A program made the translations under genes and the position numbers. The notes below the pieces were generated by a model. The model was given only the letters and a program-made list of their open reading frames with translations, searched no databases and had not been told where the DNA came from. This document shows, in pieces, positions 2,262 through 45,981 of a DNA stretch of 64,000 nucleotides. The DNA comes from an uncultured Mollicutes bacterium (GTDB taxonomy: Bacteria; Bacillota_I; Bacilli_A; RFN20; CAG-826), in the NCBI GenBank assembly GCA_900539595.1, contig UQCQ01000001.1, positions 172,291 to 236,290 on the forward strand. Direction: 5' to 3'. The stretch's first letter is position 1. The number at the start of each line of letters is the position of its first letter.

Positions 2262-2297
2262 ATAAATCACCTCAACTTTGGATTTTCTGAAGTTCAA

Positions 2298-2335: not shown

Positions 2336-2500
2336 GTTATATTACACCATTTTTAAAAATTGGGGGATATCAATAAGTTTTAAGCGCGAAGGAAAAATAA
2401 CCGACAGCAAATATTCAGCTTCTAAGCTTAATTTTGGCCGTCATTCATGATTGCACATTTTTGCAATCGTTTGCCTTTTTTCTTAAGGACGCCGAATTTG

Positions 2501-3901: not shown

Positions 3902-4071
3902 ATCAATCTCCAGTAGTATTTTAACATAAATTTTTTTGGGACAAATATTTTTGTGTAAAAATTTATAGAGAAAAGCATGCTTATCAATTAACACAAATCA
4001 ATTTATGATAAATGAATTTGTGCTATTTTATAAATCGTTAATCTTAGCATCAAGCCAATGACCTAAAATAG

Positions 4072-5256
4072 CTAATGATAAGAGTCCTTAATGAAGCCGC
4101 AAGGGTCGATAGCGATACCATTTTCAAACAATTTCTTATATGGTTCGAACACTTTGTGCGGTTGAGCCAGAATTAACACGTCCGAACGTCTTATCGCCTC
4201 TTCAATGGGGACATTAATAATGCCTTCTATCATCTCAACATGGGAATTCGGTTCACACCCAATGACGTCAAAGCCATCTTCCGTCAATTTTTTTGCAATA
4301 ACAAGGCCGCTAGAATTACGTAAATCTCCAATATTCGCTTTATAACTCAGTCCAAACACCCCGATTGTTTTACCCTTTCTTGCGATGCATAGTCTTTCCG
4401 CTTCCTCCGCAACGAGAACCGGTTTCTTATCATTTATCGTTCTCGCCATAGAAAGCAAACCGACATCGTCACCATAACGATTAATCAAAAACAATGGGTC
4501 CACAGGAATGCAATGGCCGCCTACGCCGCTGCCCGGGTTTGGAACCTTAATACGTGGATGTTTATTTATTTTGTTAATCAAGGCAAATGGGTCTATCCCC
4601 TCTTTTTCCGCAATAAATCCCACCTGATTTGCAAACGCCAAATCGACATCCCTCGCCGCATTTTGAAGGAGTTTCACCAATTCGGCTTCTTCAAACGAAC
4701 AAACGTCGATATCGGATAGGCTGATTTTAGAATAAAGGGATTTTGATCTCCTTAAAGCCACGGGGTCGTCGGACCCAATCACGCGGGCGTTGTTCTTAAT
4801 TTCCGCCATCACGTTTCCTGGCAAAATCGTTTCGGGGCAATACGCGAAACAACCTTCAAAGCCCAAACTCGAAAGCATCTTTTTTATTCGTTTCCCAGTT
4901 CCAACAGGAACGGTGCTTTCAAGAATAAGCAACGTGTCTTTTTTCAATATTCCAGCAACATCTTTTAATGCGCCTGTAACGCTAGATAAATCAGGTGTTC
5001 CATCGAGTTTCGTCGGCGTTTGAACGGCAATAACAATGCGGTCGCACTCCTTCGGTTTGTCCACATATGAAATCCGACGCGAATTTTCTTTCAGCAAGGC
5101 ATCGACGTCGGGTTCGCCATATAGAAAAGATCCGTCGATTAGTGATTGAAGACGCGAAACATTCTTCTCAACGACAATAACCTCCGCGCATTGAGAAAAG
5201 GCAGCGGCCAGCGGAAGTCCAATATAACCAGCACCAATGATTTCAATTTTTTCCAT
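4072..5256 (-). CDS. UDP-N-acetyl-D-mannosamine / UDP-sugar 6-dehydrogenase family (WecC/Cap5O-like)
   Basis: N-terminal Rossmann IEIIGAGYIGLPLAAAF. The catalytic Cys region GGHCIPVDP and overall length are typical of nucleotide-sugar dehydrogenases. It overlaps the upstream epimerase-containing gene by 14 bp. Confidence 0.7.
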   Translation of the reverse strand: MEKIEIIGAGYIGLPLAAAFSQCAEVIVVEKNVSRLQSLIDGSFLYGEPDVDALLKENSRRISYVDKPKECDRIVIAVQTPTKLDGTPDLSSVTGALKDVAGILKKDTLLILESTVPVGTGKRIKKMLSSLGFEGCFAYCPETILPGNVMAEIKNNARVIGSDDPVALRRSKSLYSKISLSDIDVCSFEEAELVKLLQNAARDVDLAFANQVGFIAEKEGIDPFALINKINKHPRIKVPNPGSGVGGHCIPVDPLFLINRYGDDVGLLSMARTINDKKPVLVAEEAERLCIARKGKTIGVFGLSYKANIGDLRNSSGLVIAKKLTEDGFDVIGCEPNSHVEMIEGIINVPIEEAIRRSDVLILAQPHKVFEPYKKLFENGIAIDPCGFIKDSYH

Positions 5257-8200
5257 ACACATGCTCCAAAATTACCGACGCGATTTTAGCTCCAGCGCCG
5301 CCTTTGCCATAACGATCATCTGGTTGAATAGTCCCCGACTTGATTAATTCATTCAGAAGCTTTGCCATGCCTTTTCCTGAAGGAGGGAACATGCACTTCC
5401 CCGCTCGTTCCGTTTTTTCGCGGACAATTAATGCGGGAATGCCAAGAAATAACGCTTCTTCTTCCACGCCGCCAGAATCCGTTATGACGGCAATAGAAGA
5501 CGATAGTTTCCTTTGAAACTCTTGTGGCTCCAACGGATTGGTAAGCGTTAGATTCGGAATGTTCTTCAGTTTTTGCGCTGCGGCAACAATCACGGGATTG
5601 GGGTGAACGGGGAACAAAAACTGCACGCGTGGATTCAATTGGCAGCATTCCCTTATTTCGGAAAAAATATTTGTCAAAAAAGGGAGGTTTTCCTTCCGAT
5701 GAATGGTAATAAGAACACCCTGCCTCGATTCGGAAACAACATTTTGTCTCAAATAATCAACGAATGTATTACCGGTAACAATCACGCCGCGTGCGCCTTC
5801 TCTTATCAGGTTTTCTTCTTCCTTGCTTGATGGGGCGAAATTCAAAGCGGCTTCTTTGCTGATTCTTTTTCGAATAATTTCTTCAGGAAAAGGATTCGAT
5901 TCATCGAAACTACGCAAACCGGCTTCCACATAATAGAGAGGAACGCCAAGCAGCAGTGACAGCTTGGCACCAGACAATGCGGATGAAGTATCACCCTGAA
6001 CACAGATATAAGAAGGGGCGAACGGCAAGACTCGCATAGTATCTTCGGCCCATTTTTCGGATATCTTGTCAAAATCTCCTTGTCGCAGCTTAACGAAACA
6101 ATGCGTATCAATCCCACCTTTCATTAGTATCTTCGTTGGAAGACCATCATGTTGATGCGTATCAAGAACATAAAAGGGTGCCTCTCTTTGTTGCAATGAT
6201 TCTAGAATCGGAAGCATCTTGATCGCTTCGGGGCGGGTTCCAAGAACAAATAAGCCTGGATGCCGATCCATGGTAAAAAGCAATTTCTCTTGCTCTTTTT
6301 CATAGGAATACAAAGATGCAATCGCATAGGCCCGCTCCGTAAGGGCATTTGTCCTTTGAACATCACGGTTCAACATTTCTATCAAGTTGGCGGCCTCTTC
6401 AACATTGGAATAAAACGCCATAGAGTCTCCAAACGTGTATTGAATGCGATTTAGGCGAGAGCTAACGACGCACGGAAGCCTCGACAAAGCGGCCTCATAA
6501 ACGCACCTCCCAAAAGTTTCCTGCAAAGAAGTGCAAAGATAAAAATCCGACTGATCGAGAGCCGTCTTCAACTGCAGCTGACCAACAGAGCCCTTAAAGA
6601 AAATGAAATCACCAGCGTCCTCTATCATGGATTCGTAAATTGTCTTCTCGTCGATTGTCCCATAGATGCTAAGGGTCGCATCATATCCACGTTTTCGTAG
6701 CAAAGAGACAATTTCTTTGGATTCGGGAAGATTTTTTTGAAGTTTAGTGCTGGAAATCATGACGATTCGCACTCTACGTCCTCCAGTCTCCCTTTCTTTT
6801 GGTTTTGAATCAAAGATTTGAGATATGCCTCTTGATATTACTTTGATGCGATTAGGATTCGCACCATAGTGTTTGGTTATCACTTCTTTGTCTTCTTCGT
6901 TTGGAACAACAATCGCCATGACATTTTGGTAAACCCTTCTTTCGGCGGCAAAATATTCTTTAGGCGGAAACTCGCCAGACCTTAAATAATCGCAACCGTT
7001 AAACATTGGGAATACTATGGCTTTCGCAAGATTTGCGTCATTCAGTCCAAAAGCTTTGGATGTATGAACAACAACAATTTCATCATAATTTTCCAAAAGA
7101 CCATTAATTCTCTCTTCGTAATGAGCGATCGAGTCAATCCTGCGGGAAAATTTCCCTTCTCGACAAGGATTTGGTAGAAATACGTGATGACGAAAAGCAT
7201 TGATATCTCCGTAATCACTTCTTGGCGAACGCAGGCAATAAAAGTCTAAATCATAGTGTCCTTTGGCGGCTTTCACTATTGACGAAACCATGCTGGATCC
7301 CCCGCCATCAGGGACCCCATAGAACTTGGAAGTAATGAGAGCAACTCGTTGACGCTCCCAAAAACGTAAATATTTTTGGAATATCGCCTCGAAGTCATAA
7401 CCATCAACCTCTTCATCTCGAGGAAGTTCTTCAAGAGGTGCCGCCAACACGGCTGCCGCGATTTCAGACGGCGAATCACCACAAATAACCCCCCTCTTGC
7501 CATTTATAATTTCACTTAATGCTCCAGAATCGGTTGAAACAATATAGGTTCTCGAAGCTATAGCCTCCAAAATCGTTCTTCCCATTCCCTCGCAATGAAT
7601 ATAACGGCCTCCAGGAACCTCATATTCAAGGTTCCCAGAGCATTGCAAATAAATATCTGCGCCTACAATATAAGGAAGTACTTTCTCGTGTTCTTTTTTT
7701 CCAAGAAAATAGATGCGCTCATTTTTTTCGTATTTTAGTTTTAGTTCCGAAAAGTCTGGGCCATCGCCGATAATGGTAAGGTCGTATGGTTTTGGAAGCA
7801 GATTAAAAGCAGTTAAAAGAAGCCCCATGCGCTTATAAGGCTCAAATCTAGCGCTGCACACAAGGTGAATTCTTTGCTCTTTAAAAAGCTTCTTCTTTAT
7901 TGCCTTTTTATCCAGCGATTCAATGGAAGAAAGTGGTACGCCTCCCCTACAGAGGCGGAGCATCGACCCTCGAATCCCCAATTCTTCCAATCGTTTTTCC
8001 GTAAAACAACTATTGGTAATGAGAATATCGACATTGCGATTAAGCGTTTCGATCCAATACCTTTGCCTATTTTCAAGTGGTTTGGTTAAATCCAATAACG
8101 GGGCCGAAGGGATTTCGTTACCACCCGTCCGATAGAGAACCCTGGCCTTTGGAAAAAACGATTTGATTTCATCCATTTCCTCAATCCAATGGCCAGAGTT

Positions 8201-9127
8201 AAAGAACACGCGAATATCGCGATGCCCAATTACGGTTTTCAAATCGGCGTACTTAGTCGAGCACCCCATGTTTGACTCGACAATTGTATTTTCGCCGTTC
8301 CTATGTGAAACAACATAAACGTCGCCTTTGTCCCAAAGAAACTTTTTAAGATACTTTGCATGGGTTTCCATGCCACCAATATCGTCAAGACTTGATTCGA
8401 TGTAGAGAAGATAAACGGGTGGCAATAGATTTAATATACTTAACGCGTTACTAACCCCATTTTCGAATGAGGCGGCAGTCACGAACTTCGCGGCGTAGCC
8501 CACTTCCGCCGGGCATCCGGCCATCGCAACGGAATTTGGAAACGATTGAATCATCTCAAAATCATTCGGGCCGTCACCAAAGACCGCAACTTCTTCTTTG
8601 GACCATCCTTCTTTATTGCAAATTAATTCAATCGCGGAAGATTTGGAAACACCTTTTCTAAGGCAAACATCCACCCCGGATTTTTGCCAGCGAACCACAT
8701 GGTATTGCTTTGGAGAAGCGCCTGTTTCATAGACCAGAGCATAAATGTTTCCTTCCGGTCGGGAGCAATCCGTCGTCACAAACCCTTTCTTTAAAAGTGA
8801 CTTTTGAATTTCTTCATTCTTTGCATGAATACCAGAATCGGCATAGGCGGCGAGCCAATTATCATTTAAGACAGCCGAAATTGGCCTTTCCGATATTTTT
8901 GTTTCTCGCTTGTATATAACAGCACCATCAAACAAAACATAGTAGTCGAATTCAAAATCCCCCAGAGCGGCTTTTGCCATACCCATATTTCGAATGCTGC
9001 ACACTCCCAGTTTAATGCCACGTTTTTGCAAGGATCTAAGATCGTTTTGCAAGGATGGCGGCATCCCCAATCCTTTGCTCTTGCAAACCAGCGTATTACC
9101 AATATCAAAGAAACAGGCTTTAATCAT
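5243..9127 (-). CDS. 1294-aa multidomain glycan-synthesis protein. Domain order: HAD-like hydrolase, GT4 glycosyltransferase, a second GT4-like domain, then a non-hydrolysing UDP-GlcNAc 2-epimerase (WecB-like) C-terminal domain.
   Basis: N-terminus MIKACFFDIGNTLV (HAD-like motif I). GGMETH and EGMGRTILEAIA are GT4 signatures. The C-terminal ~370 aa carry GTRPEAIKM, VEAGLRS, TGNT, HRKEN, DSGGVEEEA and TER motifs colinear with WecB. It is a single uninterrupted ORF. Confidence 0.65.
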   Translation of the reverse strand: MIKACFFDIGNTLVCKSKGLGMPPSLQNDLRSLQKRGIKLGVCSIRNMGMAKAALGDFEFDYYVLFDGAVIYKRETKISERPISAVLNDNWLAAYADSGIHAKNEEIQKSLLKKGFVTTDCSRPEGNIYALVYETGASPKQYHVVRWQKSGVDVCLRKGVSKSSAIELICNKEGWSKEEVAVFGDGPNDFEMIQSFPNSVAMAGCPAEVGYAAKFVTAASFENGVSNALSILNLLPPVYLLYIESSLDDIGGMETHAKYLKKFLWDKGDVYVVSHRNGENTIVESNMGCSTKYADLKTVIGHRDIRVFFNSGHWIEEMDEIKSFFPKARVLYRTGGNEIPSAPLLDLTKPLENRQRYWIETLNRNVDILITNSCFTEKRLEELGIRGSMLRLCRGGVPLSSIESLDKKAIKKKLFKEQRIHLVCSARFEPYKRMGLLLTAFNLLPKPYDLTIIGDGPDFSELKLKYEKNERIYFLGKKEHEKVLPYIVGADIYLQCSGNLEYEVPGGRYIHCEGMGRTILEAIASRTYIVSTDSGALSEIINGKRGVICGDSPSEIAAAVLAAPLEELPRDEEVDGYDFEAIFQKYLRFWERQRVALITSKFYGVPDGGGSSMVSSIVKAAKGHYDLDFYCLRSPRSDYGDINAFRHHVFLPNPCREGKFSRRIDSIAHYEERINGLLENYDEIVVVHTSKAFGLNDANLAKAIVFPMFNGCDYLRSGEFPPKEYFAAERRVYQNVMAIVVPNEEDKEVITKHYGANPNRIKVISRGISQIFDSKPKERETGGRRVRIVMISSTKLQKNLPESKEIVSLLRKRGYDATLSIYGTIDEKTIYESMIEDAGDFIFFKGSVGQLQLKTALDQSDFYLCTSLQETFGRCVYEAALSRLPCVVSSRLNRIQYTFGDSMAFYSNVEEAANLIEMLNRDVQRTNALTERAYAIASLYSYEKEQEKLLFTMDRHPGLFVLGTRPEAIKMLPILESLQQREAPFYVLDTHQHDGLPTKILMKGGIDTHCFVKLRQGDFDKISEKWAEDTMRVLPFAPSYICVQGDTSSALSGAKLSLLLGVPLYYVEAGLRSFDESNPFPEEIIRKRISKEAALNFAPSSKEEENLIREGARGVIVTGNTFVDYLRQNVVSESRQGVLITIHRKENLPFLTNIFSEIRECCQLNPRVQFLFPVHPNPVIVAAAQKLKNIPNLTLTNPLEPQEFQRKLSSSIAVITDSGGVEEEALFLGIPALIVREKTERAGKCMFPPSGKGMAKLLNELIKSGTIQPDDRYGKGGAGAKIASVILEHVYGKN

Positions 9128-29298: not shown

Positions 29299-30006
29299 AT
29301 GTTCATATTACCGAGTAAAGCGTATGTTCATCGCGAATACCCGCTTAAGGATGTCTATAAGGCGATTGGGGCAGACAAGAAGCTGATAGAGGCTTCCAAG
29401 AACATCAAGAAGATCTACATCGAATACGTCTTCAACCAGAAGAACACTAACCTTCAGGTGAAGTCGGTCAAGGAAATCCATTTCTATAAGATAGAGCTGA
29501 CAGACTTCCACGTGCCGGAGGACTTCATCCTGGCACTGGACAAGAAGGATAAGTTCCAGGTGGTGTTCATTATCACGTGTGAGGACTTGGAGAAGGATAT
29601 GACCGCTCCCAAGAGAATCAATGGGGAGGAGGTTACAAAAGCCAAATACATCCAGTCCGAATGGATGAAGATAGGGGATGATGTCAAGATACCTCCTGCC
29701 GATACTTTGGATGAACTATACTGCTTCCTCTATGGAGCCTTCAACGAATATAAGCCCTTCAAAGGTGAACTGCTTGAGAATTATATTAAAAGATGTAATG
29801 AACTGAGGAAACTCGATTATCAGATCAGTAAGACCACGATGGCAATCCAGAATGAAAGACAGTCGAAGAAGAGAATCGAATACAATCACAATCTGAACGA
29901 ATACAAAGAAAGAAAATCCTATCTATTAAACCAAAGGAGAATGGAAAATGCAGAAATTATCAGCGCAATCGAAGGATTTGTCTCAGGAGAACATAAAGAA
30001 GGTTGA
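29299..30006 (+). CDS. Hypothetical 235-aa protein between the SNF2 helicase and the methyltransferase (possibly DUF4391-type)
   Basis: Its start lies 3 bp after the SNF2 stop, and its end overlaps the mod start by 59 bp. The family assignment is inferred from the recurring helicase / DUF4391 / MTase / Res synteny, not from motifs. Confidence 0.45.
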   Translation: MFILPSKAYVHREYPLKDVYKAIGADKKLIEASKNIKKIYIEYVFNQKNTNLQVKSVKEIHFYKIELTDFHVPEDFILALDKKDKFQVVFIITCEDLEKDMTAPKRINGEEVTKAKYIQSEWMKIGDDVKIPPADTLDELYCFLYGAFNEYKPFKGELLENYIKRCNELRKLDYQISKTTMAIQNERQSKKRIEYNHNLNEYKERKSYLLNQRRMENAEIISAIEGFVSGEHKEG

Positions 30007-31849
30007 GGAATTATTCCCCAACTGCGTGACCGAAACCTATGACCAGGACGGCAACCTCGTCAGAAGCATCGACTTCGACATCCTCCGCCAGGACCTCTCC
30101 GACCATGTCGTGGAAGGCCCGAAGGAGAGATACCAGTTCAACTGGCCTGGAAAGAGAGATGCCATCCTTTTAGCAAACGCACCGACCACGAACACATTGA
30201 GACCTTTGCCAGAGAAGTCCGTCAATTTCGAGAATACGAAGAACGTCTATATCGAAGGAGATAACCTCGAGGCTCTGAAAATCCTCAGAGAGACCTACAT
30301 GGGCAAGATCAAGATGATCTACATCGACCCACCGTACAATACAGGTAATGATTTCGTCTATAAAGATGACTTCAAACAGTCTACTGAAGAATATTTGAAA
30401 TCATCCGGCGACATCGACGAGGAAGGCAACCGCATGGAAGTCAACGGAGAATCCAACGGAAGATTCCATTCAGACTGGCTCAATATGATGTATCCAAGAC
30501 TCGTTCTCGCAAGAGACTTGCTCACGGATGATGGATTGATCTTCATGAGCATCGATGACAATGAGCAGGACAATTTAGTTCGTCTAGGAAAAGAAATATT
30601 TGGCGAATCGAATTTTGTGGCGACTTTTCCTTGGAGAAAACGCACTGCGAAATCTGATGTGCCTTTTGGTGTTTCGCAGGATTTTGAATGGGTTCTCTGC
30701 TTTGCTAAATCGAGTCAAACAAGAGTTAGTATTGAAGGAAAAGAAAGAAAATACTTTGAAACGGATGATTTTCCAGGGCGTCCCTGGCGAATTCATGATT
30801 TGACTAAGCAAACCACAGCGTCTGAACGACCTAACAGTTACTTCACTATTGTGGATAAAAAAAGAAATATATCTTACCCTGCAAACCCAAATAGAACATG
30901 GTGTGTCTCTAAAGACACTTTTTCCCAATATGATGCTGAAAATCGAATCGTCTATCCTGGAGACTATCCTTTTTTGAAAATATCGCAGCCTGTTCTAAGA
31001 TATTGGAAAGAAGACGATCAGAAAAAAGATGGCGAATTATTCGGACGTGTTGCATTAAGCACATTATTTCCACAAAGTGTAGGAATGTCCCAAGATGGAA
31101 GTAAAGATGTTTTTAAATTATTCAATTCCAAAATATTCAGCTTTCCAAAGCCGGTCTCATTGATAAAGTATTTAATATCTGCTGCTACGCAAGAAGACGA
31201 TTTAATCGCAGATTTCTTTTCCGGATCCGCCACCACCGCAGAAGCCGTTTTCAAGCAAAACCTTGAAGATAATGGAAACAGAAAATTTCTTTTGATACAG
31301 ATGCCGGAACACACCGGTGATACTGAAGCCTTTAAAAATGGTTTTTCAGATATTTGCAGCCTTGCTGAGGAAAGAATACGTCGTGCAGGAAAAGTTATCA
31401 AAGAGGAAAATCTTCTTACTATAGAGGGATTTGATTTTGGATTTCGTGTATTTAAGACCGATTCTTCCAATATGAAGGATGTTTTGAGTACTCCAAAAGA
31501 AACTCAGCTGAGTCTTCTTGAAAATGCTGAGTCTGCTATTAAACCTGACCGAAGTCCTCTTGATCTTGTCACTCAAGTTATGCTTCAGCTGGGCATGACT
31601 CTCGATGCTGATATAAAAATTGGAAAGTTTGCGGGCGGAGGGCAATTCTATGCCGTTAACGGCAATGATCTCGTCTGCTGCTTTGATAAGAACATTTCCG
31701 AATCTAACATTGAGGAACTGGCTCGGATACAGCCTTTAAACGTTGCATTCAAAGATGATTCCTTTGCTTCTGATCAGGATGAAGTCAACTGTGAGCAGAT
31801 ATTTAAGACTCTTTCTCCGATTACCGGTAAAAATATCTTTGTTCTTTGA
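29948..31849 (+). CDS. mod: Type III restriction-modification Mod subunit (beta-class N6-adenine DNA methyltransferase)
   Basis: Motif IV MIYIDPPYNTGNDF precedes motif I DFFSGSATT (beta order). 633 aa, with a 4-bp overlap onto res. Confidence 0.8.
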   Translation: MQKLSAQSKDLSQENIKKVEELFPNCVTETYDQDGNLVRSIDFDILRQDLSDHVVEGPKERYQFNWPGKRDAILLANAPTTNTLRPLPEKSVNFENTKNVYIEGDNLEALKILRETYMGKIKMIYIDPPYNTGNDFVYKDDFKQSTEEYLKSSGDIDEEGNRMEVNGESNGRFHSDWLNMMYPRLVLARDLLTDDGLIFMSIDDNEQDNLVRLGKEIFGESNFVATFPWRKRTAKSDVPFGVSQDFEWVLCFAKSSQTRVSIEGKERKYFETDDFPGRPWRIHDLTKQTTASERPNSYFTIVDKKRNISYPANPNRTWCVSKDTFSQYDAENRIVYPGDYPFLKISQPVLRYWKEDDQKKDGELFGRVALSTLFPQSVGMSQDGSKDVFKLFNSKIFSFPKPVSLIKYLISAATQEDDLIADFFSGSATTAEAVFKQNLEDNGNRKFLLIQMPEHTGDTEAFKNGFSDICSLAEERIRRAGKVIKEENLLTIEGFDFGFRVFKTDSSNMKDVLSTPKETQLSLLENAESAIKPDRSPLDLVTQVMLQLGMTLDADIKIGKFAGGGQFYAVNGNDLVCCFDKNISESNIEELARIQPLNVAFKDDSFASDQDEVNCEQIFKTLSPITGKNIFVL

Positions 31850-34800
31850 GGAATTTAATTATGAAATTCATATTTAAAGAACAGGATTACCAGATATCGG
31901 CTGTGAAAGCTGTCACGGATGTTTTTGCTGGACAACGTTATCAGTCGCTTTCTCAATACACACGTGACTTGGGAAAACTTTCACCGAAAGAAGCTGGCAA
32001 GAATCAGCAATTAAGACTTGACTTAGGGCTTAATAACAAAAGCGACCTTTTGGTGGCCAAAGGCAACGATAATGATGATTTAGCCATAGGTTTTGCTAAT
32101 GCGCCAATTCAGATTGATGATCAACAGGCCTTGAAAAATATTCAAACCATTCAGATGAAATCCAATTTATCGGTGGATGAGCATCTTTCCAAAGTTCTTA
32201 GCCCTTTGGACTTAGATGTGGAGATGGAGACCGGAACGGGTAAAACCTATGTCTATATCCGCACAATGTTTGAGTTGAATAAACTTTACGGCTTTTCTAA
32301 ATTCATCGTCATGGTTCCATCCATTGCTATTCGTGAAGGTGTCAAGAAGTCATTCGAACAGACTCAGGAACACTTCATGTCCATCTACGGGAAGAAAGCC
32401 CGTTTCTTTATTTATAGCAGTGCAAACCTGGCTGAAATCGATAACTTCGCCAAAGATAGTTCCATCGAAGTGATGATCATCAACATCCAGGCTTTCAATA
32501 CGCACGGCAAGGACGGACGAAAGATTTATGAGGAACTCGATGAATTCCAGTCCAGAAGACCGATCGACGTCATCAAGAAGACTAGACCGATTCTGATTCT
32601 TGATGAGCCACAGAAGATGAGTGGAGACGCTACCAAATCTTCCATAGGTGAATTCAATCCACTTTTCACCATTAACTACTCGGCTACGCACAAAGAAAAA
32701 CACAATCTTGTATATGTTCTTGATGCCTTGGACGCCTATAACGCGAAGCTTGTTAAGAAAATCCAGGTAAAAGCAGTCAAGGTCGATAATGTCAAAGGAA
32801 CCCAGGCTTTCTTATATTTGGAGGATATCATCCTTCGAGGTGATAAAGATCCTCAGGCGAAAATCAGCTTCTTCCGCAACACCAAGCAAGGAATCAAATC
32901 CTATACACAGCTGCTTAGTCGCCAAGACAACATCTATGAACTATCCGGTTTTGATGCCACAAGCCAATTATCGGTCTATAAGAACAACTATATCGTCGAT
33001 GAAATCGATTATGTATCAAATACCGTCAGATTGCTGAACGGCATTGTTTTGCATGCCGGAGAAGTGATTGGGGATAACTCGGAAGATTTGATAAGAAGAA
33101 TACAAATCCGTGAGACTATCGCTTCCCATTTGGAAAAGGAGCAGGATAATTTCCATAAAGGAATAAAGACCCTTTCTCTTTTCTTCATCGACGAAGTCAA
33201 AAAATATAGAGACTATTCTCAGCCCGATGAAAAAGGCGAATATGCCAAGATTTTCGAGGAAGAATACAACTGGGCGGTTACTGAATTTTGCAATAACCTC
33301 ATCAACACAGATGAGGAATATAAGAAGTATCTTCAGCTATTTACTCCTGATCAGGTCCATAACGGCTATTTTTCCATCGATAAGAAAGGACATGCAATCG
33401 ATTCCAAAGCGGATCGCAAGACAGGTTTATCCGATGATCAATCCGCCTATGATTTGATTTTGAAGAACAAGGAACGTCTTCTTTCCTTCGATGAGCCCAC
33501 TCGTTTCATATTCTCCCATTCTGCCTTACGGGAGGGATGGGACAACCCGAATGTCTTCCAAATCTGCTTCTTAAGACATACCAAGAGCGAAACTCAGAAA
33601 CGGCAGGAAGTGGGTCGTGGTCTTCGTATCGCCGTAGATAAGAACGGAAACCGTCAAGACGCCACTGTTTTAAGTGATTTCTTCGGCGTGAATAAGCTTA
33701 CTGTCATTGCTAATGAGGATTACGAGTCATTCGTAAAAGGATTGCAGTCTGAAATCAAGGAAGTCCTCTATAAGCATCCGACCAAGGCGGACAAGGACTT
33801 CTTCTTTGGCAAGCCGATCACGAACGCAGAAACCAATGCTGAAACCAACATTACGGATGCTCAGGCTAGAAGCATTTACCAGTATTTGGTGAAAAACGAT
33901 TATGTGGATGCTTCTGACAATCTTACAGAGAAATTCCGTGACGATGTGGATAAGTCCATATTAGTTGACATGCCGGAAGATTTGAAACCTTATCAGGCAT
34001 CCATCATCGAACTTGCAAACAGCATCCGCAAAGGCGGAAATATTGAAATCGAAAACGGCAAGAAACCTAAGGTTCTCGAAAACAAAGTCAATCAGAATTT
34101 CGATAGAAAGGAATTCAAAGAGCTTTGGAACGCCATCAACCATAAGTACTCCTATCGCGTTTCCTTCAGCTCTGACGAATTAGTTAAGAATTGCATCGAA
34201 AGAATCAAGAAAGAATTGGAAGTTTCTAAAATAACCTATTCGGTCGATGTCGGTGAGCAGAAAGAAACTATTGATCAGAAAGATATTGATAATTCCTTCC
34301 AAAGAGGTGCCGATAGTGGAAAGAAAGAAAAACTCCATGTTGCTGCTCCTTCTTCTGCAAAATACGATCTTGTTCACGAAATAGCTCAGCGCACGCATCT
34401 TACTCGAAGAACGATTGTCCGTATTCTCGTCGGGACAAAAGAAAAGCTTCAGATGTTCCGTAATAACCCGGAAGAATACATCACAAAGATTAGTAATCTG
34501 ATTGATGATGAAAAGGCCTCTGTGATTGTTCGTGGCATCCGCTATGACAAATTGACTGACAAATTTGACGATACCATTTTCAACGAAAAGCACGCCGATT
34601 TTGATAGTCAGAAGGCTTTCAAATCCAAAAAGGCAATCCAGGATTATGTCTTTGTCGACGGTACCGCCAAAAACGGCGAATCCAATGAGATGAAGTTTGT
34701 CAAAAATCTTGAACAGCAAGAAAACGTCAAGGTATACGCAAAAATGCCTAAAGGTTTTTATATTCCTACTCCGATGGGAAGATATTCTCCTGACTGGGCC

Positions 34801-35028
34801 ATCGTCTATGAATCCAATGGCGAAAAAGGCATTTATTTCATTGCTGAAACGAAAGGAAACTTGAGTTCCTTATCTTTGCGAAAGGTTGAGGAATCCAAGA
34901 TTGAATGCGCGAAGAGCCTTTATAACCAGCCCAAATCCAAGGTCAATTATGGCTTAGTACATACCTATGATGATCTTGTCACGAAGGTGATGGACATTTT
35001 GGAAAAACACAACGGAGAGCAATCATGA
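31846..35028 (+). CDS. res: Type III restriction enzyme Res subunit (SF2 helicase plus C-terminal PD-(D/E)xK nuclease)
   Basis: Walker A VEMETGTGKTYV and DEPQ box ILILDEPQKM. C-terminal YSPDWAIVYE...IAETKG nuclease motif. 1060 aa. Confidence 0.8.
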   Translation: MRNLIMKFIFKEQDYQISAVKAVTDVFAGQRYQSLSQYTRDLGKLSPKEAGKNQQLRLDLGLNNKSDLLVAKGNDNDDLAIGFANAPIQIDDQQALKNIQTIQMKSNLSVDEHLSKVLSPLDLDVEMETGTGKTYVYIRTMFELNKLYGFSKFIVMVPSIAIREGVKKSFEQTQEHFMSIYGKKARFFIYSSANLAEIDNFAKDSSIEVMIINIQAFNTHGKDGRKIYEELDEFQSRRPIDVIKKTRPILILDEPQKMSGDATKSSIGEFNPLFTINYSATHKEKHNLVYVLDALDAYNAKLVKKIQVKAVKVDNVKGTQAFLYLEDIILRGDKDPQAKISFFRNTKQGIKSYTQLLSRQDNIYELSGFDATSQLSVYKNNYIVDEIDYVSNTVRLLNGIVLHAGEVIGDNSEDLIRRIQIRETIASHLEKEQDNFHKGIKTLSLFFIDEVKKYRDYSQPDEKGEYAKIFEEEYNWAVTEFCNNLINTDEEYKKYLQLFTPDQVHNGYFSIDKKGHAIDSKADRKTGLSDDQSAYDLILKNKERLLSFDEPTRFIFSHSALREGWDNPNVFQICFLRHTKSETQKRQEVGRGLRIAVDKNGNRQDATVLSDFFGVNKLTVIANEDYESFVKGLQSEIKEVLYKHPTKADKDFFFGKPITNAETNAETNITDAQARSIYQYLVKNDYVDASDNLTEKFRDDVDKSILVDMPEDLKPYQASIIELANSIRKGGNIEIENGKKPKVLENKVNQNFDRKEFKELWNAINHKYSYRVSFSSDELVKNCIERIKKELEVSKITYSVDVGEQKETIDQKDIDNSFQRGADSGKKEKLHVAAPSSAKYDLVHEIAQRTHLTRRTIVRILVGTKEKLQMFRNNPEEYITKISNLIDDEKASVIVRGIRYDKLTDKFDDTIFNEKHADFDSQKAFKSKKAIQDYVFVDGTAKNGESNEMKFVKNLEQQENVKVYAKMPKGFYIPTPMGRYSPDWAIVYESNGEKGIYFIAETKGNLSSLSLRKVEESKIECAKSLYNQPKSKVNYGLVHTYDDLVTKVMDILEKHNGEQS

Positions 35029-35219
35029 ACTATGCCGAGAAACTAAAAAAAATCCGTGAAACTTTACTATTATCTCAGGATGAATTGGCCAAAGAACTTA
35101 GTGTTACTTTTGCAACCGTGAATCGTTGGGAAAACGGACATCATGAGCCATCGCTAAAAGGAAAGAAGGCCATCAGAGATTACTGCAAGAAAATGCACAT
35201 TAAATTGGAAAAGGATTAA
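35025..35219 (+). CDS. XRE-family helix-turn-helix protein (64 aa)
   Basis: LSQDELAKELSVTFATVNRWENGHHEPS is a canonical Cro/CI-type HTH. Its start overlaps the res stop by 4 bp. Confidence 0.6.
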   Translation: MNYAEKLKKIRETLLLSQDELAKELSVTFATVNRWENGHHEPSLKGKKAIRDYCKKMHIKLEKD

Positions 35220-36159
35220 GATTGCTGATTTTATCGTTCTTCAAAAAATCTAAAACAAAATCTCTCCAATTTTGGTACCAATACCATTGTTTACCGACAA
35301 AGACACCATAGTGCTTTTCTGGATTTCTTGCATCATATTTTTTCCATAGCTTTGTGTGTTGATCTAGATTGAAAGTCGGAAAACCATTCTCTTTAACGAA
35401 ATTGACTATGGCACTAGGCAAAAACTTTGGCCTTTCTGTTTCTTTTATCAATAAATTTATTGCGTTGCTTTCCTCACTTCCTGACTTGACAAACCTTATT
35501 GCCTGGTCGGCTTGGTTTGGCTTGTTAACGTTTACAGGTACGAAACATACTCTATAAGAATATTTAGAATTTTCTAATATTTCGCTTGAGAGTGATTTTT
35601 CATAGGAAGAGATAATACTTGTGATGTTGTCAGCTGTCTTTTTGTTGATTAAGCCATTTTTTTGTTCTGGATTCAATGATGAAAATTGTATTGCCATACA
35701 CATAGTTTTATCTAATCCGAATTTGACGCCGAACAATTGCTTGATATAGTAATTGAAGTTGATGCTGCAAGCTTGGATTTTGGCACTTATTAATGAATCG
35801 TTTGTTTCGTAATAGCTATGCTCGATTTTGTTTCTAATTTGGATAAGAAGTTCTAAATTTTTCGCAGTAGGTTCATCTATTGGCGATTTGGTTTCTTTGA
35901 TGCTTCGCGATAAATCCCACTCTCTTTTCCGACCATCTATATATTCGTATTTGTATTTCCCATTGTCTTGAGACTTTCTATAGTAATAGCAAATATGATT
36001 TTTGTAGTAATACGCATGGAATAAATAAGTCCAGGCAATTTCTGAATTTACAATAAATAGTTCGCTTTTAAATGTGATTGTTGGATTGTTGTAGATTGCA
36101 ACTGCTGACATCATTGCTTGTCTAGCTTTTTCGACCAATGTTTTCCATTTGGCTTTCAT
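35200..36159 (-). CDS. HEPN-like protein (RNxxxH motif; Abi/DUF4145-like), 319 aa
   Basis: LELLIQIRNKIEHSYY carries an Rx4H HEPN-type motif. It is convergent with, and overlaps by 20 bp, the HTH gene at the 3' end of the R-M operon. AT-rich. Confidence 0.45.
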   Translation of the reverse strand: MKAKWKTLVEKARQAMMSAVAIYNNPTITFKSELFIVNSEIAWTYLFHAYYYKNHICYYYRKSQDNGKYKYEYIDGRKREWDLSRSIKETKSPIDEPTAKNLELLIQIRNKIEHSYYETNDSLISAKIQACSINFNYYIKQLFGVKFGLDKTMCMAIQFSSLNPEQKNGLINKKTADNITSIISSYEKSLSSEILENSKYSYRVCFVPVNVNKPNQADQAIRFVKSGSEESNAINLLIKETERPKFLPSAIVNFVKENGFPTFNLDQHTKLWKKYDARNPEKHYGVFVGKQWYWYQNWRDFVLDFLKNDKISNLNPFPI

Positions 36160-40515: not shown

Positions 40516-41871
40516 TCAATGTTCTTGAATCAAAAAAGACAAATAATAAGGCAACGACAATTTATCGTCCTGCGTTCCAACATTACCCGAATAAAGTTTA
40601 ATCATTTGATTTACATGATATTTGGGATTACTCAAAACTTCATTGGCGGCCTTTGTTTTTCCGTTTCTAGCCTTTACTTCAATTAACGTAGCTTGACCTT
40701 GGTAACGGGTAACAAAATCAATCTCTAATCCCGTTGTCTTCCGGAAATAATAGAGTTTGCGCCCGTTTTTAGTAAAAGCGTCTGCCACCATCTCTTCGTA
40801 CAATGCACCTTTGTAGATCCCTAAATTGTCGTTAATAATATCGCTTGCCGTCCCTTCTTCGAGTTGAGATACAAAGAGCCCAACATCCGAAAAATAGATT
40901 TTAAATTCGTTCGGTATTGCGGATCCATTTAACGGTAGGTCAAAGCTCGCCAAATTAAAACAAGGGACGAGAAGTCCGTAATCAACAAGCCATTGCAAAG
41001 CTTCGGAGTATCGATCCGATTTTGCATTTTTGTCCACGTTACTAAACTGGAATTTTTTATAATCTTTCGCCAATTGAATGGGTAACGAATCCATGATTTG
41101 ATTCAGTTTAATGAGCAGGGGTTTATCCGTTCGTTCCTGCCCTGTTTCGGAGATAAATTTTCCAAAATCACTTCGATAGCTCTCCATAAGATTTCTTTGC
41201 TTTTCGCGTGTAACCGCATAATCCCCGCTTTTTAGGAAAAGATCTACGACTTCTGGCATTCCTCCCACAACCAAATATTCACGGTAATAACCTAATAATG
41301 CCGTGTGAATAGCCAAAGGAATTGATGTCCGGTTCTCATAGGACTTCTGGAGCAAATTTAAAATGGTCTCATTCACTCCTTTTGCCCAAAGGAATTCCTC
41401 AAAATCCATGGATGTCATCGTAAGAATGCTTTCTTGCCCCACAGATGGTCCTTGCCCAGGTGTACGGTTATATCCTTTGATCCCCAATAAAGAACCAGTG
41501 GCCAAAACATCGTATCTTTGATCCAAAACAAAACTTCGTAAGCTAGAACGGGCATTCGGGCATTCTTGAATCTCATCCATGATAAGAAGGGTTTTCCCAG
41601 GAACCAAATGGAAGGGAGGCAAATATAAAGACAAAGCCGTCATAATAGAATCGACGCGTAAATCCTCAAGAAAAGCGTTCTTGATTTCAGGTTGCATCTT
41701 AAAATTCATATAAACGACGTTTTCGTAGTTTTCTTCGCCGAATTGTTTGGCAATATAAGTTTTGCCCACTTGCCTTAAGCCTTTGATAATCAAAGCCTCG
41801 TGATTTTTTCCAGCGATTTTAGAATTCTTCCAACGAAGAAGTTCCGACATAATCTTTCTTTTGAATCCCAT
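40516..41871 (-). CDS. AAA+ ATPase of the DUF4143/AAA_14 family (paralog of 1023-2261)
   Basis: Walker A ALIIKGLRQVGKTYIAKQF and Walker B LLIMDEIQ. Same architecture as the ATPase at the window start. Confidence 0.7.
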   Translation of the reverse strand: MGFKRKIMSELLRWKNSKIAGKNHEALIIKGLRQVGKTYIAKQFGEENYENVVYMNFKMQPEIKNAFLEDLRVDSIMTALSLYLPPFHLVPGKTLLIMDEIQECPNARSSLRSFVLDQRYDVLATGSLLGIKGYNRTPGQGPSVGQESILTMTSMDFEEFLWAKGVNETILNLLQKSYENRTSIPLAIHTALLGYYREYLVVGGMPEVVDLFLKSGDYAVTREKQRNLMESYRSDFGKFISETGQERTDKPLLIKLNQIMDSLPIQLAKDYKKFQFSNVDKNAKSDRYSEALQWLVDYGLLVPCFNLASFDLPLNGSAIPNEFKIYFSDVGLFVSQLEEGTASDIINDNLGIYKGALYEEMVADAFTKNGRKLYYFRKTTGLEIDFVTRYQGQATLIEVKARNGKTKAANEVLSNPKYHVNQMIKLYSGNVGTQDDKLSLPYYLSFLIQEH

Positions 41872-42034: not shown

Positions 42035-42110
42035 TGGTGCCGCGAACCGGAATCGAACCAGCAACCTACTGATTACAAATCAGTTGCTCTGCCAATTGAG
42101 CTATCGCGGC
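42035..42110 (-). tRNA. tRNA-Thr (anticodon TGT)
   Basis: Reverse complement GCCGCGA-TA-GCTC-AATTGGCA-GAGC-A-ACTGA-TTTGTAA-TCAGT-AGGTT-GCTGG-TTCGATT-CCGGT-TCGCGGC-A-CCA. Confidence 0.8.
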
Positions 42111-42119
42111 AAGCGAAGC

Positions 42120-42194
42120 TGGTGGGTGTTGGGGGGATCGAACCCTCGACCTCTTCCGTGTGAAGGAAGCGCTCTCCCTCTGAGCTAAACACCC
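42120..42194 (-). tRNA. tRNA-Val (anticodon CAC)
   Basis: The reverse complement has acceptor GGGTGTT/AACACCC, anticodon arm CTTCC-TTCACAC-GGAAG and T-loop TTCGATC, with CCA encoded. There is one A:C mismatch in the T-stem. Confidence 0.7.
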
Positions 42195-42245
42195 AAGAAA
42201 CAAAATAACCCCGGACCGTGAAGCGATCCGGGGCTTTCTTCTAAA

Positions 42246-42322
42246 TGGTGGGCCTTAATGGGCTCGAACCATCGACCTTGCGCTTATCAAGCGCACGCTC
42301 TAACCAACTGAGCTAAAGGCCC
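42246..42322 (-). tRNA. tRNA-Ile (anticodon GAT)
   Basis: The reverse complement has acceptor GGGCCTT/AAGGCCC, D-arm GCTC-AGTTGGTTA-GAGC, anticodon arm TGCGC-TTGATAA-GCGCA and T-arm GATGG-TTCGAGC-CCATT, with CCA encoded. Confidence 0.8.
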
Positions 42323-42524
42323 ACACCACGCCCGAAAGCGCTTCAATATAATAGGACAACGCTAGGCACTAGGCAAGCATAATTTTTCAACTTTCACAGA
42401 TTTTGCAAAAACCATTTCTCACGACCGTGTAATCGATAAAATTAAGCCAATTTTCGGATGTTATCGGCCTCTTGGCTTTCTTATTCAAAACGAATTACAT
42501 TGGCATATTGATGACATCTTACGC

Positions 42525-42998
42525 CTAGCGTTTCGTGTACATCTCTTTGATTTCTTTCAGTATTTGTTCCTTTGTTTTGCCGACTAGCCCCAATTGTTTC
42601 ATATCAACGCTTTCGTTTTGCATCCTTTGCACAAATTCCTGAATGTCAGCGTAAACGCTCGAAGGAACCGTTATTTTATTCGTTGGATCAACCAATTCGG
42701 TTAAACGGAAAACATCGTTTTTGTGTTTCTTGATATTTTTGTCATCTATGTGTTGTCCCAAGACTTTGTGTTTTGTTAAATCCAACCACGCTTTTGCCTT
42801 AAATGGAATCAAATAGTCCGCGGCAAGAACCGTTATTCCATCCAACGTCACTTTTCCTTCTTTCAAAAACTCATAATAATCGTCATCCAACAAAATGGCG
42901 GATAAACTCGAAATATCCTCATCCATGGGCAAGGGCGTTAATATTGCATCCTTCGGAAGCTGAATGGCATCCAATTTGCGAGTGAACAATTCGATCAT
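42525..42998 (-). CDS. Hypothetical 157-aa protein translationally coupled (ATGA overlap) to the upstream minimal nucleotidyltransferase; a candidate TA partner
   Basis: Start/stop overlap CCATGATCG at 42995-42998. No Rx4-6H motif was found. Confidence 0.45.
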   Translation of the reverse strand: MIELFTRKLDAIQLPKDAILTPLPMDEDISSLSAILLDDDYYEFLKEGKVTLDGITVLAADYLIPFKAKAWLDLTKHKVLGQHIDDKNIKKHKNDVFRLTELVDPTNKITVPSSVYADIQEFVQRMQNESVDMKQLGLVGKTKEQILKEIKEMYTKR

Positions 42999-43294
42999 GG
43001 CTGGATATCGATTCGAAATGGGACGACTAAATCGATAAAACTGCGGGGCCCCGTACTTTTATTGCAATGTTCGTATCCTGCTTGTTTGATGTAATCCCAA
43101 AACTTCCTTCCGAAATTCACATCCACCGCTTCTATAATCAAAACAAGATCAATATCCTTGGTCGCGCGAAAGTCCAGCCCTTCCTTTGCCATCAAGATAT
43201 CGCATGCCGTTCCGCCGATGATGACATATTGTCCTTCGCAACCCCGAAACCATTTTTTAAAAGTCAATTCCTGCAACCATCTATTTCCTTCCAC
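42995..43294 (-). CDS. Minimal nucleotidyltransferase (MNT / Pol-beta superfamily), 99 aa
   Basis: VIIGGTACDILMAKEGLDFRATKDIDLVLI has the G[GS]x...DxD nucleotidyltransferase signature. Confidence 0.55.
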   Translation of the reverse strand: MEGNRWLQELTFKKWFRGCEGQYVIIGGTACDILMAKEGLDFRATKDIDLVLIIEAVDVNFGRKFWDYIKQAGYEHCNKSTGPRSFIDLVVPFRIDIQP

Positions 43295-44223
43295 AGCTCG
43301 CTTAGCATTTCTTCTACCGCATCTTCTACGCGTTCATCGGTGTTTTCCCTCAATGCCAGCGCCAGTGAAAGCCTATCCACACGATTCTGCTTAGCTAACT
43401 TCCAAGGGCTGTATCGCCACATTTCCACAGCAACCTGTGTCCGAGAATCCAGCAACCTTTCCGTCATTACGCCTTGCCACTGAGAGATTTTTTCCGTTGC
43501 ATAACATTTAACACCCGGAGCATTTAACATGGAATACCCCGCCAAGGCCGAACATCCACTTTCCAATAAATTAGTAGATACGCATTCCTTTGGAACATAG
43601 ACCGTACGCTTGATGGGGTTCAACAAAGTATCTTTTGCTTTTTGGAATAATTCTTCGGGGGAATTTTCTGCTGTCAGAATCCTTTGAACCCCCATTTTCC
43701 TTATCTGCAGCAATCCAAATTCCTCAAGTTGTTTGGAAGCTCTTGATATGGAAGTTGGGGTCCATTCCAAATCTTTCGTGGCTTGGCTGGTAGTTAGTTC
43801 TTTTGCCCCGTTATAAATGAAATGTAATAGCAGAACTTGGGCCGACGGAAGAATTGCGTCTCTTTTTTGTATCTCTGCGGTGCCTCGTTCTTGCAAGTAC
43901 ATCGCCATAAAAGGCAAATAAACCTGTTTTTCTTCTACAATAAAAGGAATTCTATCGCGAATTAAATATTCCTTGTGACGGAAACTAAGTCCCCGTAGTA
44001 CCAACACAATAGGCAAATTCACGTTTTCTTGAATTCGAGCAATATGTTTTTTCAAAGCGTCCACTTGCTCTAGTTCAGTCTTAGGGTAAAGAAAAATTGC
44101 CTTTTGTTTATCGATAAATACAGGTTGCACGCGATACCTTGAGACAATAAAGTTGGGTAAATGTTCGATCTTTACGTTGCTATAAGTGACCTTGATTCCG
44201 AGAACTTTGTTGAGATAATCCAT
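43264..44223 (-). CDS. Hypothetical 319-aa protein with a central winged-HTH-like segment; first gene of the NTase module
   Basis: Overlaps the NTase gene by 31 bp. ...LTTSQATKDLEWTPTSISRASKQLEEFGLLQ is wHTH-like. The family is unassigned. Confidence 0.4.
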   Translation of the reverse strand: MDYLNKVLGIKVTYSNVKIEHLPNFIVSRYRVQPVFIDKQKAIFLYPKTELEQVDALKKHIARIQENVNLPIVLVLRGLSFRHKEYLIRDRIPFIVEEKQVYLPFMAMYLQERGTAEIQKRDAILPSAQVLLLHFIYNGAKELTTSQATKDLEWTPTSISRASKQLEEFGLLQIRKMGVQRILTAENSPEELFQKAKDTLLNPIKRTVYVPKECVSTNLLESGCSALAGYSMLNAPGVKCYATEKISQWQGVMTERLLDSRTQVAVEMWRYSPWKLAKQNRVDRLSLALALRENTDERVEDAVEEMLSELWKEIDGCRN

Positions 44224-44346
44224 GCGAGCACCTTTATTCTTAACTCTTTTTATGTATTTTAACTTTTTTAGGTTAAGATACAGTATTTATGTAAAGATAA
44301 GTAAGAAACCGCTAATCAAAACTGTTCTTCAAGGAAATAACGAAAT

Positions 44347-44378
44347 AAAAAACTCCGGAACCTGAATTCCGGAGTTTT
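44347..44378 (-). terminator. Rho-independent terminator downstream of rpsI (bidirectional hairpin)
   Basis: AAAACTCCGGAA-CCTGAA-TTCCGGAGTTTT forms a perfect 12-bp stem flanked by A and T runs. Confidence 0.6.
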
Positions 44379-45369: not shown

Positions 45370-45981
45370 ATGTTTTCTTATAATTGTTGCGTGAAAGAAA
45401 AGAAAATTCAAAAATTACTCGATTTTGCCGAACTAAATGATGGATACGTTTCTGTGGCAGAAGCCAGGGAAAAAGGCATTGCTCAGACCTATTTATGCAT
45501 GGCAGAGGAAGAAGGGATCTTCAAAAAAGTCTGCAAAGGGCTCTATGTGAAAAAAGGGTATGAGGTAGATCCCTTCACCATTCTTCATTTCCGATACCGC
45601 AAAGCCGTATTCGCTTCTCGAAGCGCTTTATTTCTCCATGGCATCCTGAAGGAACAGCCCAAGGAATTAGAAGTCTATCTCCCAAGAAACTACATGACTT
45701 CCGGTATCGAAGGATCACGTTCCTATCACGTATCAGGAGACGATTTCCTTTTAGGCCTTGGCCTTGCCGTTTCTCCTCACGGTCCTCTTGTTCCTACTTA
45801 TGACAAGGAACGAGCCTTTCTAGATGTATTACGTCATTACAATCGATACGAGGACGAAGAATACCGTTCCATCCTATCTCAAGCAAAAAGCTACGACTTA
45901 GACCACGAAAAACTATTAAGGTACGCGGACGCGTTTCACGTGCGCGAGGCCGTAGAAATGGCTTTAAAAGGAATTTGGTAA
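45370..45981 (+). CDS. AbiEi-like (type IV TA antitoxin / transcriptional regulator N-terminal domain) protein; no cognate AbiEii adjacent
   Basis: LLDFAELNDGYVSVAEAREKGIAQTYLCMAEEEGIFKKVCKGLYV matches the AbiEi_4 N-terminal domain pattern. It sits on the opposite strand between rplM and yebC. Confidence 0.5.
   Translation: MFSYNCCVKEKKIQKLLDFAELNDGYVSVAEAREKGIAQTYLCMAEEEGIFKKVCKGLYVKKGYEVDPFTILHFRYRKAVFASRSALFLHGILKEQPKELEVYLPRNYMTSGIEGSRSYHVSGDDFLLGLGLAVSPHGPLVPTYDKERAFLDVLRHYNRYEDEEYRSILSQAKSYDLDHEKLLRYADAFHVREAVEMALKGIW

Follow-up and report, generated by a model that had tools for sequence, protein, structure and literature searches.

The 64,000-nt window analysed here, the whole stretch of contig UQCQ01000001.1 between positions 172,291 and 236,290 from an uncultured Mollicutes bacterium, carries on its minus strand, between the rpsI gene and a tRNA cluster, three consecutive open reading frames (ORFs) that a preliminary description had read as a three-gene minimal-nucleotidyltransferase (MNT) module resembling toxin-antitoxin (TA) systems. 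All three were found where it had placed them, encoding 319, 99 and 157 amino acids (aa), the second with a GTG start, but the comparison with relatives revealed two genes rather than three. We are confident that the locus is a two-gene cassette, consisting of a gene for a 319-aa DNA-binding protein (the partner) and a ~252-aa nucleotidyltransferase (NTase) gene broken by two deletions, and that the intact cassette is most likely a TA or abortive-infection system. Judged from its sequence, the NTase is a Pol-beta-fold member of the DUF1814/AbiEii/MenT superfamily that is translationally coupled to the upstream partner. The copy in the window is an ordinary decaying remnant; the cassette family is widespread, mobile and unnamed.

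One nucleotidyltransferase gene with two deletions

When the 99-aa and 157-aa ORFs were fused conceptually and used as the homology query, 7,382 proteins were matched among 8,000 candidates scored, and the best 120 matches were almost all 251–252 aa long, covering 95–96% of the query, with the top match 99% identical. An exhaustive search identified 2,771 relatives among 50%-identity representatives, nearly all of ~250 aa. The intact proteins start MVAGIDDFKKWF and continue ...KSTGAPQFYRFSRPISNRYPAMIELF... uninterrupted across the junction. The 99-aa and 157-aa ORFs are fragments of a single ~252-aa gene. A frameshift joining them, which the preliminary description had itself raised as the alternative to a split protein (a single ORF of ~256 aa), is what the comparative evidence revealed, since the homologues are essentially all single proteins of ~252 aa.

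Three-frame translation showed that the 157-aa frame stays open for ~20 codons upstream of its own ATG (KYGAPQFYRFSRPISNRYPA-MIELF...) and meets the 99-aa frame at the GGGGCCCC run. The native ATG at 43280, preceded by a Shine-Dalgarno-like GGAAGGA, overlaps the 319-aa gene by 17 nt; it lies near the 5' end of the 99-aa ORF, shares its frame with the 157-aa ORF, and is translated as MVAGIDF*. DNA alignment of the window with contigs encoding intact relatives (~96–99% nucleotide identity), which share the order rpsI, 319-aa gene, NTase, tRNA and AAA_14/DUF4143 as far as they reach, revealed exactly two length differences. At the first lesion the window reads GAC-TTTT against GACGATTTT in the intact allele; the 'GA' is missing from the window and from contigs L005, L008, L009 and L010, and is kept in L001–L004 and L011. 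Its loss therefore brings a TAA (43259..43257) into frame after 7 codons from the native ATG. The second lesion, which is common to the window and L005–L010 (the G run is intact in L011 and L001–L004), returns the frame to the original. A family hidden Markov model (HMM) matched the window in two fragments, at profile positions 7–82 and 78–250, which break exactly at the G run, and its scan found no second, compensating NTase copy in the window. The coordinates of these features are summarized in Table 1.

Table 1. Features of the cassette locus in the window, and NTase homologues on phage contigs
Feature	Coordinates	Strand	Source
Partner gene, 319 aa, intact	43264..44223	(-)	ORF list
Called 99-aa ORF, GTG start	42995..43294	(-)	ORF list
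Called 157-aa ORF	42525..42998	(-)	ORF list
NTase pseudogene, native ATG 43280 to native stop 42525..42527, ~252 codons, two deletions	42525..43280	(-)	
Lesion 1, 2-nt deletion ('GA' of codon 7, GAT) between these bases	43262..43263	(-)	DNA alignments
Premature TAA in the native reading frame	43257..43259	(-)	Three-frame translation
Lesion 2, 1-nt deletion (GGGG here, GGGGG in intact relatives)	43049..43052	(-)	DNA alignments
Upstream non-coding region of the cassette	44224..44378	(-)	Terminator and repeat scans
rpsI terminator hairpin	44349..44378		Terminator scan
tRNA-Ile/Val/Thr cluster, downstream of the cassette	42035..42322		
NTase homologue on phage contig MT835494.1	20553..21311		
NTase homologue on phage contig MT835483.1	66578..67348		
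NTase homologue on phage contig MT839224.1	4036..4455		

Residues 12–82 of the 99-aa ORF correspond to native residues 8–78 and include G23-G24 (43216..43211), R39, T41, D43 (43156..43154) and D45 (43150..43148); its residues 1–11 and 83–99 are out of frame. The 157-aa ORF represents native residues 96–252, begins at the conserved internal Met96, and carries E98 (42992..42990), K162/A165 of motif III and K186-H187..D190 of a motif IV-like sequence. Native residues 79–95, 17 in all, are encoded in no ORF.

Several details of the preliminary description held. The 99-aa ORF contains GGTACD...DIDLVLI and this N-terminal piece is a nucleotidyltransferase, an Rx4-6H motif is absent from the 157-aa ORF, the combined 99+157 aa is the size of an AbiEii-type toxin, and the upstream 319-aa protein bears a winged helix. 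The gene overlaps exist but mean something else: the 31-nt overlap is the product of a fortuitous upstream GTG in a shifted frame, and at the ATGA overlap the conserved internal Met96 meets an out-of-frame stop, which is not a coupling site. A three-gene module was not borne out, because the two smaller ORFs are pieces of one gene. Nor was a split but working toxin with a perfect coupling site, given two frameshifting deletions and invariant residues that no ORF encodes; the proposed MNT with a non-HEPN partner, following type VII logic, has as its 'MNT' a fragment of a 252-aa protein.

Because the rpsI terminator hairpin stands upstream, the cassette should have its own promoter within 44224..44348. 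Scans upstream of the cassette revealed no convincing operator-like inverted repeats, only a 16-nt pair that is 75% complementary and an 8-nt direct repeat. The GC content of the module (41.6%) is near that of the window (44%).

Inherited inactivation and continuing decay

Conservation was counted over 73 diverse intact NTase members, in which G23, G24, T41, D43, D45, Y70, R84, F85, P94, E98, L127, K162, A165, K186 and D190 are invariant. R84, F85 and P94 are lost from the window, where they occur in no ORF, together with the adjacent Y83, and the metal-binding D43/D45 lie on one fragment and the third carboxylate, E98, on the other. No Shine-Dalgarno sequence or other ribosome-binding site was recognisable before either fragment start, and the NTase gene of the window has no uninterrupted frame holding all of the invariant residues. 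From these features, it is very unlikely that the fragments are functional.

Exactly the same 157-aa product is annotated on 21 contigs, which come from independent metagenome assemblies, most of them short-read. Both deletions were found in L005 and L010 (100% identical to the window over 2 kb), L008 (99.2%) and L009 (98.7%), and L006/L007 carry the second deletion in a different downstream context. The closest intact relative, L011, is 99.0% identical to the window, and L012, the nearest genome at species level, encodes an intact NTase (96% protein identity) beside the same tRNA neighbours. Because both deletions recur in independent short-read assemblies that include strains diverged by 0.8–1.3%, the lesions are real and inherited. 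The NTase gene of L008 has a third deletion, of 1 nt, and L006/L007 carry R39C, a substitution of a residue conserved in 72 of the 73 family members; in L009 the 319-aa gene looks split because of a run of N. The NTase gene was thus inactivated recently in one strain lineage and is now decaying, and the partner gene is still full length.

The differences between the NTase sequences of the window and those of L008 and L009 are all synonymous, and purifying selection after inactivation was considered as their cause and rejected. The four sites form a 3' block that runs into the intergenic region and also occurs in the intact L011, so the synonymous-only pattern reflects recombination or older polymorphism. 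Over 42407..42597 (minus strand), which spans the 3' end of the NTase pseudogene and the intergenic sequence toward tRNA-Ile, 11 substitutions part the window, L005 and L010 from L006–L009. At the four coding sites that it covers, L011 sides with L006–L009, and the window matches the more distant L004 type at six of the 11 sites. This cluster looks like a short recombination tract. The L006/L007 sequence (positions 1..8654) has an AraC regulator, ABC transporter genes and a GH2 glycosidase downstream instead of the tRNA cluster and the AAA_14 ATPase; because these downstream genes differ from those of the window, the decayed cassette there adjoins a rearrangement point or occupies a second genomic context.

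Other accounts of the broken gene were weighed against inactivation. A working three-gene or split toxin, in which the 99-aa and 157-aa products are translationally coupled and assemble an active enzyme, or in which an MNT acts with a novel partner, would draw on the existing ATGA-overlapping ORFs and on fragments that are still ~99% identical to intact relatives. We regard it as very improbable, given that essentially all of the listed homologues are fused, the 17 native residues that include invariant R84, F85 and P94 are in neither fragment, no Shine-Dalgarno sequence precedes the fragment starts and the native start runs into a stop, the sister contigs are still decaying (third deletion, R39C), and the HEPN motif is absent. 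A sequencing or assembly artefact, with homopolymer errors in a genome that truly has an intact 252-codon gene, has even less in its favour: one lesion does lie in a G homopolymer and the two total −3 nt, but at least six independent short-read assemblies of different samples, diverged strains included, have the same two deletions, and the first lesion is of 2 nt and not within a homopolymer of the deleted bases.

Hardly any likelihood attaches, to the same degree, to recoded or phase-variable expression, by which a low level of near-native enzyme would arise through a +1 slip at TTT_TAA or a frame-2 GTG start, followed by a −1 slip at G_GGG_C. Read from the sequence, tRNA re-pairing would be perfect at both slips, and a −1 slip at ACG GGG CCC would restore the native ...STGAPQFYRF.... 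However, stimulatory elements are not apparent, classical phase variation would need longer runs than these, the scheme depends on two rare events, further lesions accumulate in the sister contigs, and the apparent synonymous excess is the 3' recombination block common to the intact L011 rather than a sign of selection.

The intact enzyme, its partner and their mobility

Pfam analysis of the 99-aa ORF revealed a weak AbiEii match (PF08843, 18.9 bits, E = 0.0015), and among the 73 diverse members AbiEii was the sole recurrent Pfam family, matched by 40 at E ≤ 0.1 (best 1.2e-6). With PADLOC, the fragments and intact members showed sub-threshold AbiEii matches only, plus the candidate-system model PDC-M21B, which was weakly matched by 7 of the 73 NTase members (best 1e-4); no mention of PDC-M21 was found in the literature searched. 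An NCBIfam scan of the fragments gave no match, a sequence-profile search of the NTase against the PDB gave nothing beyond a weak N-terminal motif match, and the PGAP label of the NTase on RefSeq plasmids is 'hypothetical'. The AlphaFold model of the intact NTase (predicted local distance difference test [pLDDT] 82, predicted template modelling score [pTM] 0.79) has a Pol-beta-type NTase core and a helical C-terminal domain.

DUF1814 proteins are characterized by motifs I/II, hG[GS]-x15-DhD with an Arg inside motif II; by motif III, a lysine among hydrophobic residues (KLxAaxxR in COG4849); and by motif IV, +DxxD (PMC3985639). Motifs I/II are present in the cassette NTase as I-G23-G24, R39 (72/73) and D43 and D45 (73/73), in the order R39-x-T41-x-D43-x-D45, with 18 residues between GG and DxD as against 15 in DUF1814. 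Motif III is present as K162 and A165 (each in 73/73) with an aromatic residue at 166 in 70/73, and the basic residue after it, at 172 (R in 47, K in 8), stands farther off than in the consensus. T41, invariant in 73/73, is a Thr two residues before DxD that aligns with T39 of MenT1 in the profile-PDB alignment. T39 of MenT1, like its equivalents S78 of MenT3 and T65 of AbiEii, is the site of antitoxin-induced auto-phosphorylation (PMC11375011; bioRxiv 10.64898/2026.01.19.700257). Because AbiEii is the sole recurrent family and motifs I/II, motif III and the invariant T41 are present, we place the enzyme as a divergent branch of the DUF1814 superfamily, outside the Pfam AbiEii family.

The 319-aa partner consists of an N-terminal alpha/beta domain (~1–115), a central MarR-type winged helix (~125–195) and a conserved C-terminal domain (~200–319) with the pattern ...AGxxALSxYSML...ExWxYxP...VDxLSLxLSL...DERVE.... 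A word-indexed search identified 898 homologues, nearly all of 319 aa. Profile search against the PDB returned MarR-type helix-turn-helix (HTH) matches only, and no matching family was found for the N-terminal (pLDDT ~83) or the C-terminal domain. The PADLOC candidate-system model PDC-M05A showed weak matches in 24 of 60 partner members (best 1e-5), probably owing to the winged HTH (wHTH). With this wHTH in a central position, preceded by a domain of ~115 aa, and a total length of ~320 aa, the protein lacks the AbiEi architecture.

Linkage between the two genes was tight: in 77 of 80 genomic loci a partner homologue extends up to or into the start of the NTase gene. The phyla represented include Bacillota, Bacteroidota, Spirochaetota, Pseudomonadota, Planctomycetota, Actinomycetota and Chlamydiota. 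Of the other three loci, two lack upstream sequence on their contigs and the third has a homologue ~350 nt upstream. Overlaps are typically of 17, 7, 4 or 1 nt. The flanking genes are unrelated between loci, in that the 69 upstream neighbours fall into 65 clusters and the 75 downstream neighbours into 73, and housekeeping genes are mixed with integrases, PD-(D/E)XK transposases, HipA, pAgo, AriA, AbiEi, AbiLi and reverse transcriptases. The cassette was found on 49 plasmids, 32 of them predicted to be conjugative; a P. aeruginosa copy is carried by a conjugative megaplasmid, and the Shinella copy is flanked by IS256 and IS21 elements and adjoins a restriction endonuclease. Cultured carriers of the intact cassette include Roseburia faecis JCM 17581 (NZ_CP173697.1, locus L016), and another copy is on the P. 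aeruginosa plasmid NZ_CP095924.1. It occurs in at least ~600 species of many phyla, and is missed by Pfam and PADLOC at their thresholds and unnamed by PGAP. NTase homologues of 36–43% identity are also encoded on three unannotated phage contigs from human faecal samples (Table 1), so that the cassette or the NTase may travel on phages as well.

The tRNA cluster to which the preliminary description drew attention is present, but only 3 of 60 loci have tRNA genes within 4 kb of the cassette, and tRNA adjacency was rejected as an integration signal. The tRNA neighbourhood is incidental, because tRNA genes adjoin the cassette directly only in the lineage of the window (L012).

Among other genes of the region, a 203-aa protein (45370..45981, plus strand) is a clear AbiEi antitoxin (PADLOC PDLC02225, E 4e-33; Pfam AbiEi_4). 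It is an orphan, because no AbiEii gene follows it and a convergent YebC/TACO1 gene begins 45 nt downstream. It lies 1.1 kb from the broken cassette, across rplM-rpsI, and its position is conserved in L005, L009 and L012. Homologues of this AbiEi bear the name Candidatus Enteromonas, and the DNA probably comes from an uncultured Bacilli member of the gut. A link between this orphan and the cassette by way of the 319-aa partner was considered and rejected (hhalign 1.3%). On the far side of the tRNA cluster a 451-aa AAA_14/DUF4143 ATPase (40516..41871, minus strand; E 2.5e-28 and 2.8e-22) has a faint NERD-like tail; AAA_14/DUF4143 proteins are frequent in variable or defence-type regions. In the segment ~29948..36159 of the window (L005 14840..16474), the L005 counterpart of a 1,060-aa ORF (31846..35028, plus strand) has ResIII/DEAD helicase and RE_endonuc domains, and a DUF3644 protein, likewise of 319 aa (35200..36159, minus strand), stands beside a small HTH_3 gene seen only in the L005 annotation. 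The 1,060-aa ORF, the DUF3644 protein, the orphan AbiEi and the broken cassette suggest a variable, defence-rich stretch interleaved with housekeeping genes.

Proposed function and related systems

Analogy with AbiE and MenAT suggests a TA or abortive-infection module as the most likely role of the intact cassette. The NTase would add nucleotides to tRNA 3' ends and so halt translation. The partner, for its part, would act through its winged helix as a repressor of the operon and would also neutralise the NTase, plausibly by inducing auto-phosphorylation of the invariant Thr41 beside DxD. In the window, only the regulator/antitoxin half could still function. In a TA pair decay should begin with the toxin, because a cell can lose the toxin without harm but not the antitoxin. 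The NTase has taken three independent frameshifts plus a motif-II substitution and the partner is intact; this is the pattern expected of a TA pair, and it also fits simple disuse. A broader proposal is that the cassette is an unrecognised major branch of the AbiE/MenAT TA and abortive-infection systems, that its partner is a new antitoxin class acting through Thr41, and that the window captures the usual first step of decay, with the toxin lost and the antitoxin kept. To our judgement this could as well prove wrong as right.

Several points weigh against the main interpretation of the locus. Toxicity, antitoxicity and phage defence are attributed to the cassette family by analogy only. The intact protein P0001 scored 16.9 bits (E 0.0065) against AbiEii PF08843, over the N-terminal motif only and below the gathering threshold of 22.5, and its model had no Foldseek match in the PDB at E ≤ 1e-3 (best TM 0.40), with weak matches that were all Pol-beta-superfamily NTases. 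Motif IV is K186-H187-x-x-D190 (73, 72 and 73 of 73) and not +DxxD, with His for the first Asp. The C-terminal domain of the partner was not modelled reliably (pLDDT ~40). AbiEi, which the earlier reading of the 319-aa protein as the regulator of a split AbiE toxin would lead one to expect, was not detected in the partner: no AbiEi family of Pfam (AbiEi_1–4) or PADLOC recurs, and comparison with a genuine AbiEi alignment by hhalign gave a probability of 1.3%. Finally, both lesions of the window copy lie at sequences that permit tRNA re-pairing (TTT_TAA; G_GGG_C), so that a trace of full-length product is possible in principle.

The intact cassette could instead comprise a MarR-regulated enzyme that modifies small molecules, an antibiotic or metabolite nucleotidyltransferase like LnuA/ANT, whose copy in the window was lost through disuse. 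We consider this unlikely. The only recurrent sequence family is AbiEii (40/73 members), and the DUF1814-specific Arg of motif II, the Thr two before DxD and the K-x-x-A-aromatic motif are conserved. The partner and enzyme genes overlap translationally at nearly every locus, and the partner is a three-domain protein of ~320 aa rather than a ~150-aa MarR dimer. A TA or abortive-infection function remains the preferred reading.

The outcome for the window is a correction, in that gene callers report three small 'TA-like' genes where there are an intact regulator gene and a dead enzyme gene, and at least 21 public contigs already carry the same miscalls. Outside the window, a large, mobile and tightly linked gene pair related to the AbiE/MenT toxins is without a name in current family libraries. 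G23-G24, R39, T41, D43, D45, E98, K162, K186 and D190 offer clear residues of the NTase at which catalysis and regulation are testable. If the enzyme acts like MenT/AbiEii, control by antitoxin-induced auto-phosphorylation would extend to a new antitoxin architecture, and if the TA or abortive-infection reading is true, defence and TA catalogues would gain a common gut-microbiome, plasmid-borne system.

In MNT-HEPN (type VII) systems, the NTase is an antitoxin of ~100–130 aa paired with an Rx4-6H HEPN toxin. The N-terminal fragment shares their minimal Pol-beta NTase signature, GG...DxD, whereas the native cassette NTase has 252 aa with its own C-terminal helical domain and no HEPN partner. 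Helicobacter pylori JHP933 and the Paracoccidioides NTase-like antigen (PDB 4ok0, 5uvd) are 9–11% identical to the cassette NTase and are stand-alone proteins without a conserved partner. A second DUF1814 gene pair, COG4849-COG4861 (Rv0836c-Rv0837c), was noted bioinformatically by Dy et al. 2014 (PMC3985639). There, as in the cassette, a predicted wHTH regulator (COG4861) precedes a DUF1814-type NTase, and motif III of COG4849, KLxAaxxR, resembles K162-x-x-A165-aromatic. The main caveat on novelty is that the cassette might be the same as this pair, with which it was compared by motif III and gene order only, and would then be less new than it looks.

AbiE (AbiEi-AbiEii of Lactococcus and Streptococcus agalactiae; COG5340 antitoxin and DUF1814/COG2253 toxin) is, like the cassette, bicistronic, with the winged-helix gene first and an overlapping Pol-beta-type NTase gene, and both occur on mobile elements. 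The two NTases share motifs I/II with an Arg in motif II, a Thr by DxD (T65 in AbiEii, T41 here) and a lysine motif III. The cassette NTase differs from AbiEii in falling below the Pfam threshold, in a GG-to-DxD spacing of 18 rather than 15, and in having KHxxD rather than +DxxD as motif IV. The partner, at ~320 aa with a central MarR-type wHTH and an extra N-terminal domain, differs from AbiEi, which has ~200 aa, an N-terminal wHTH and a C-terminal antitoxin domain. The MenT toxins of the MenAT systems of Mycobacterium tuberculosis (MenT1, MenT3/TglT, MenT4) are 11–15% identical to the cassette NTase, and the partner is unlike both the small helical MenA1 and the AbiEi-like MenA3. The closest known systems are AbiE (COG5340-COG2253) and MenAT, and the cassette family appears as a variant related to both.

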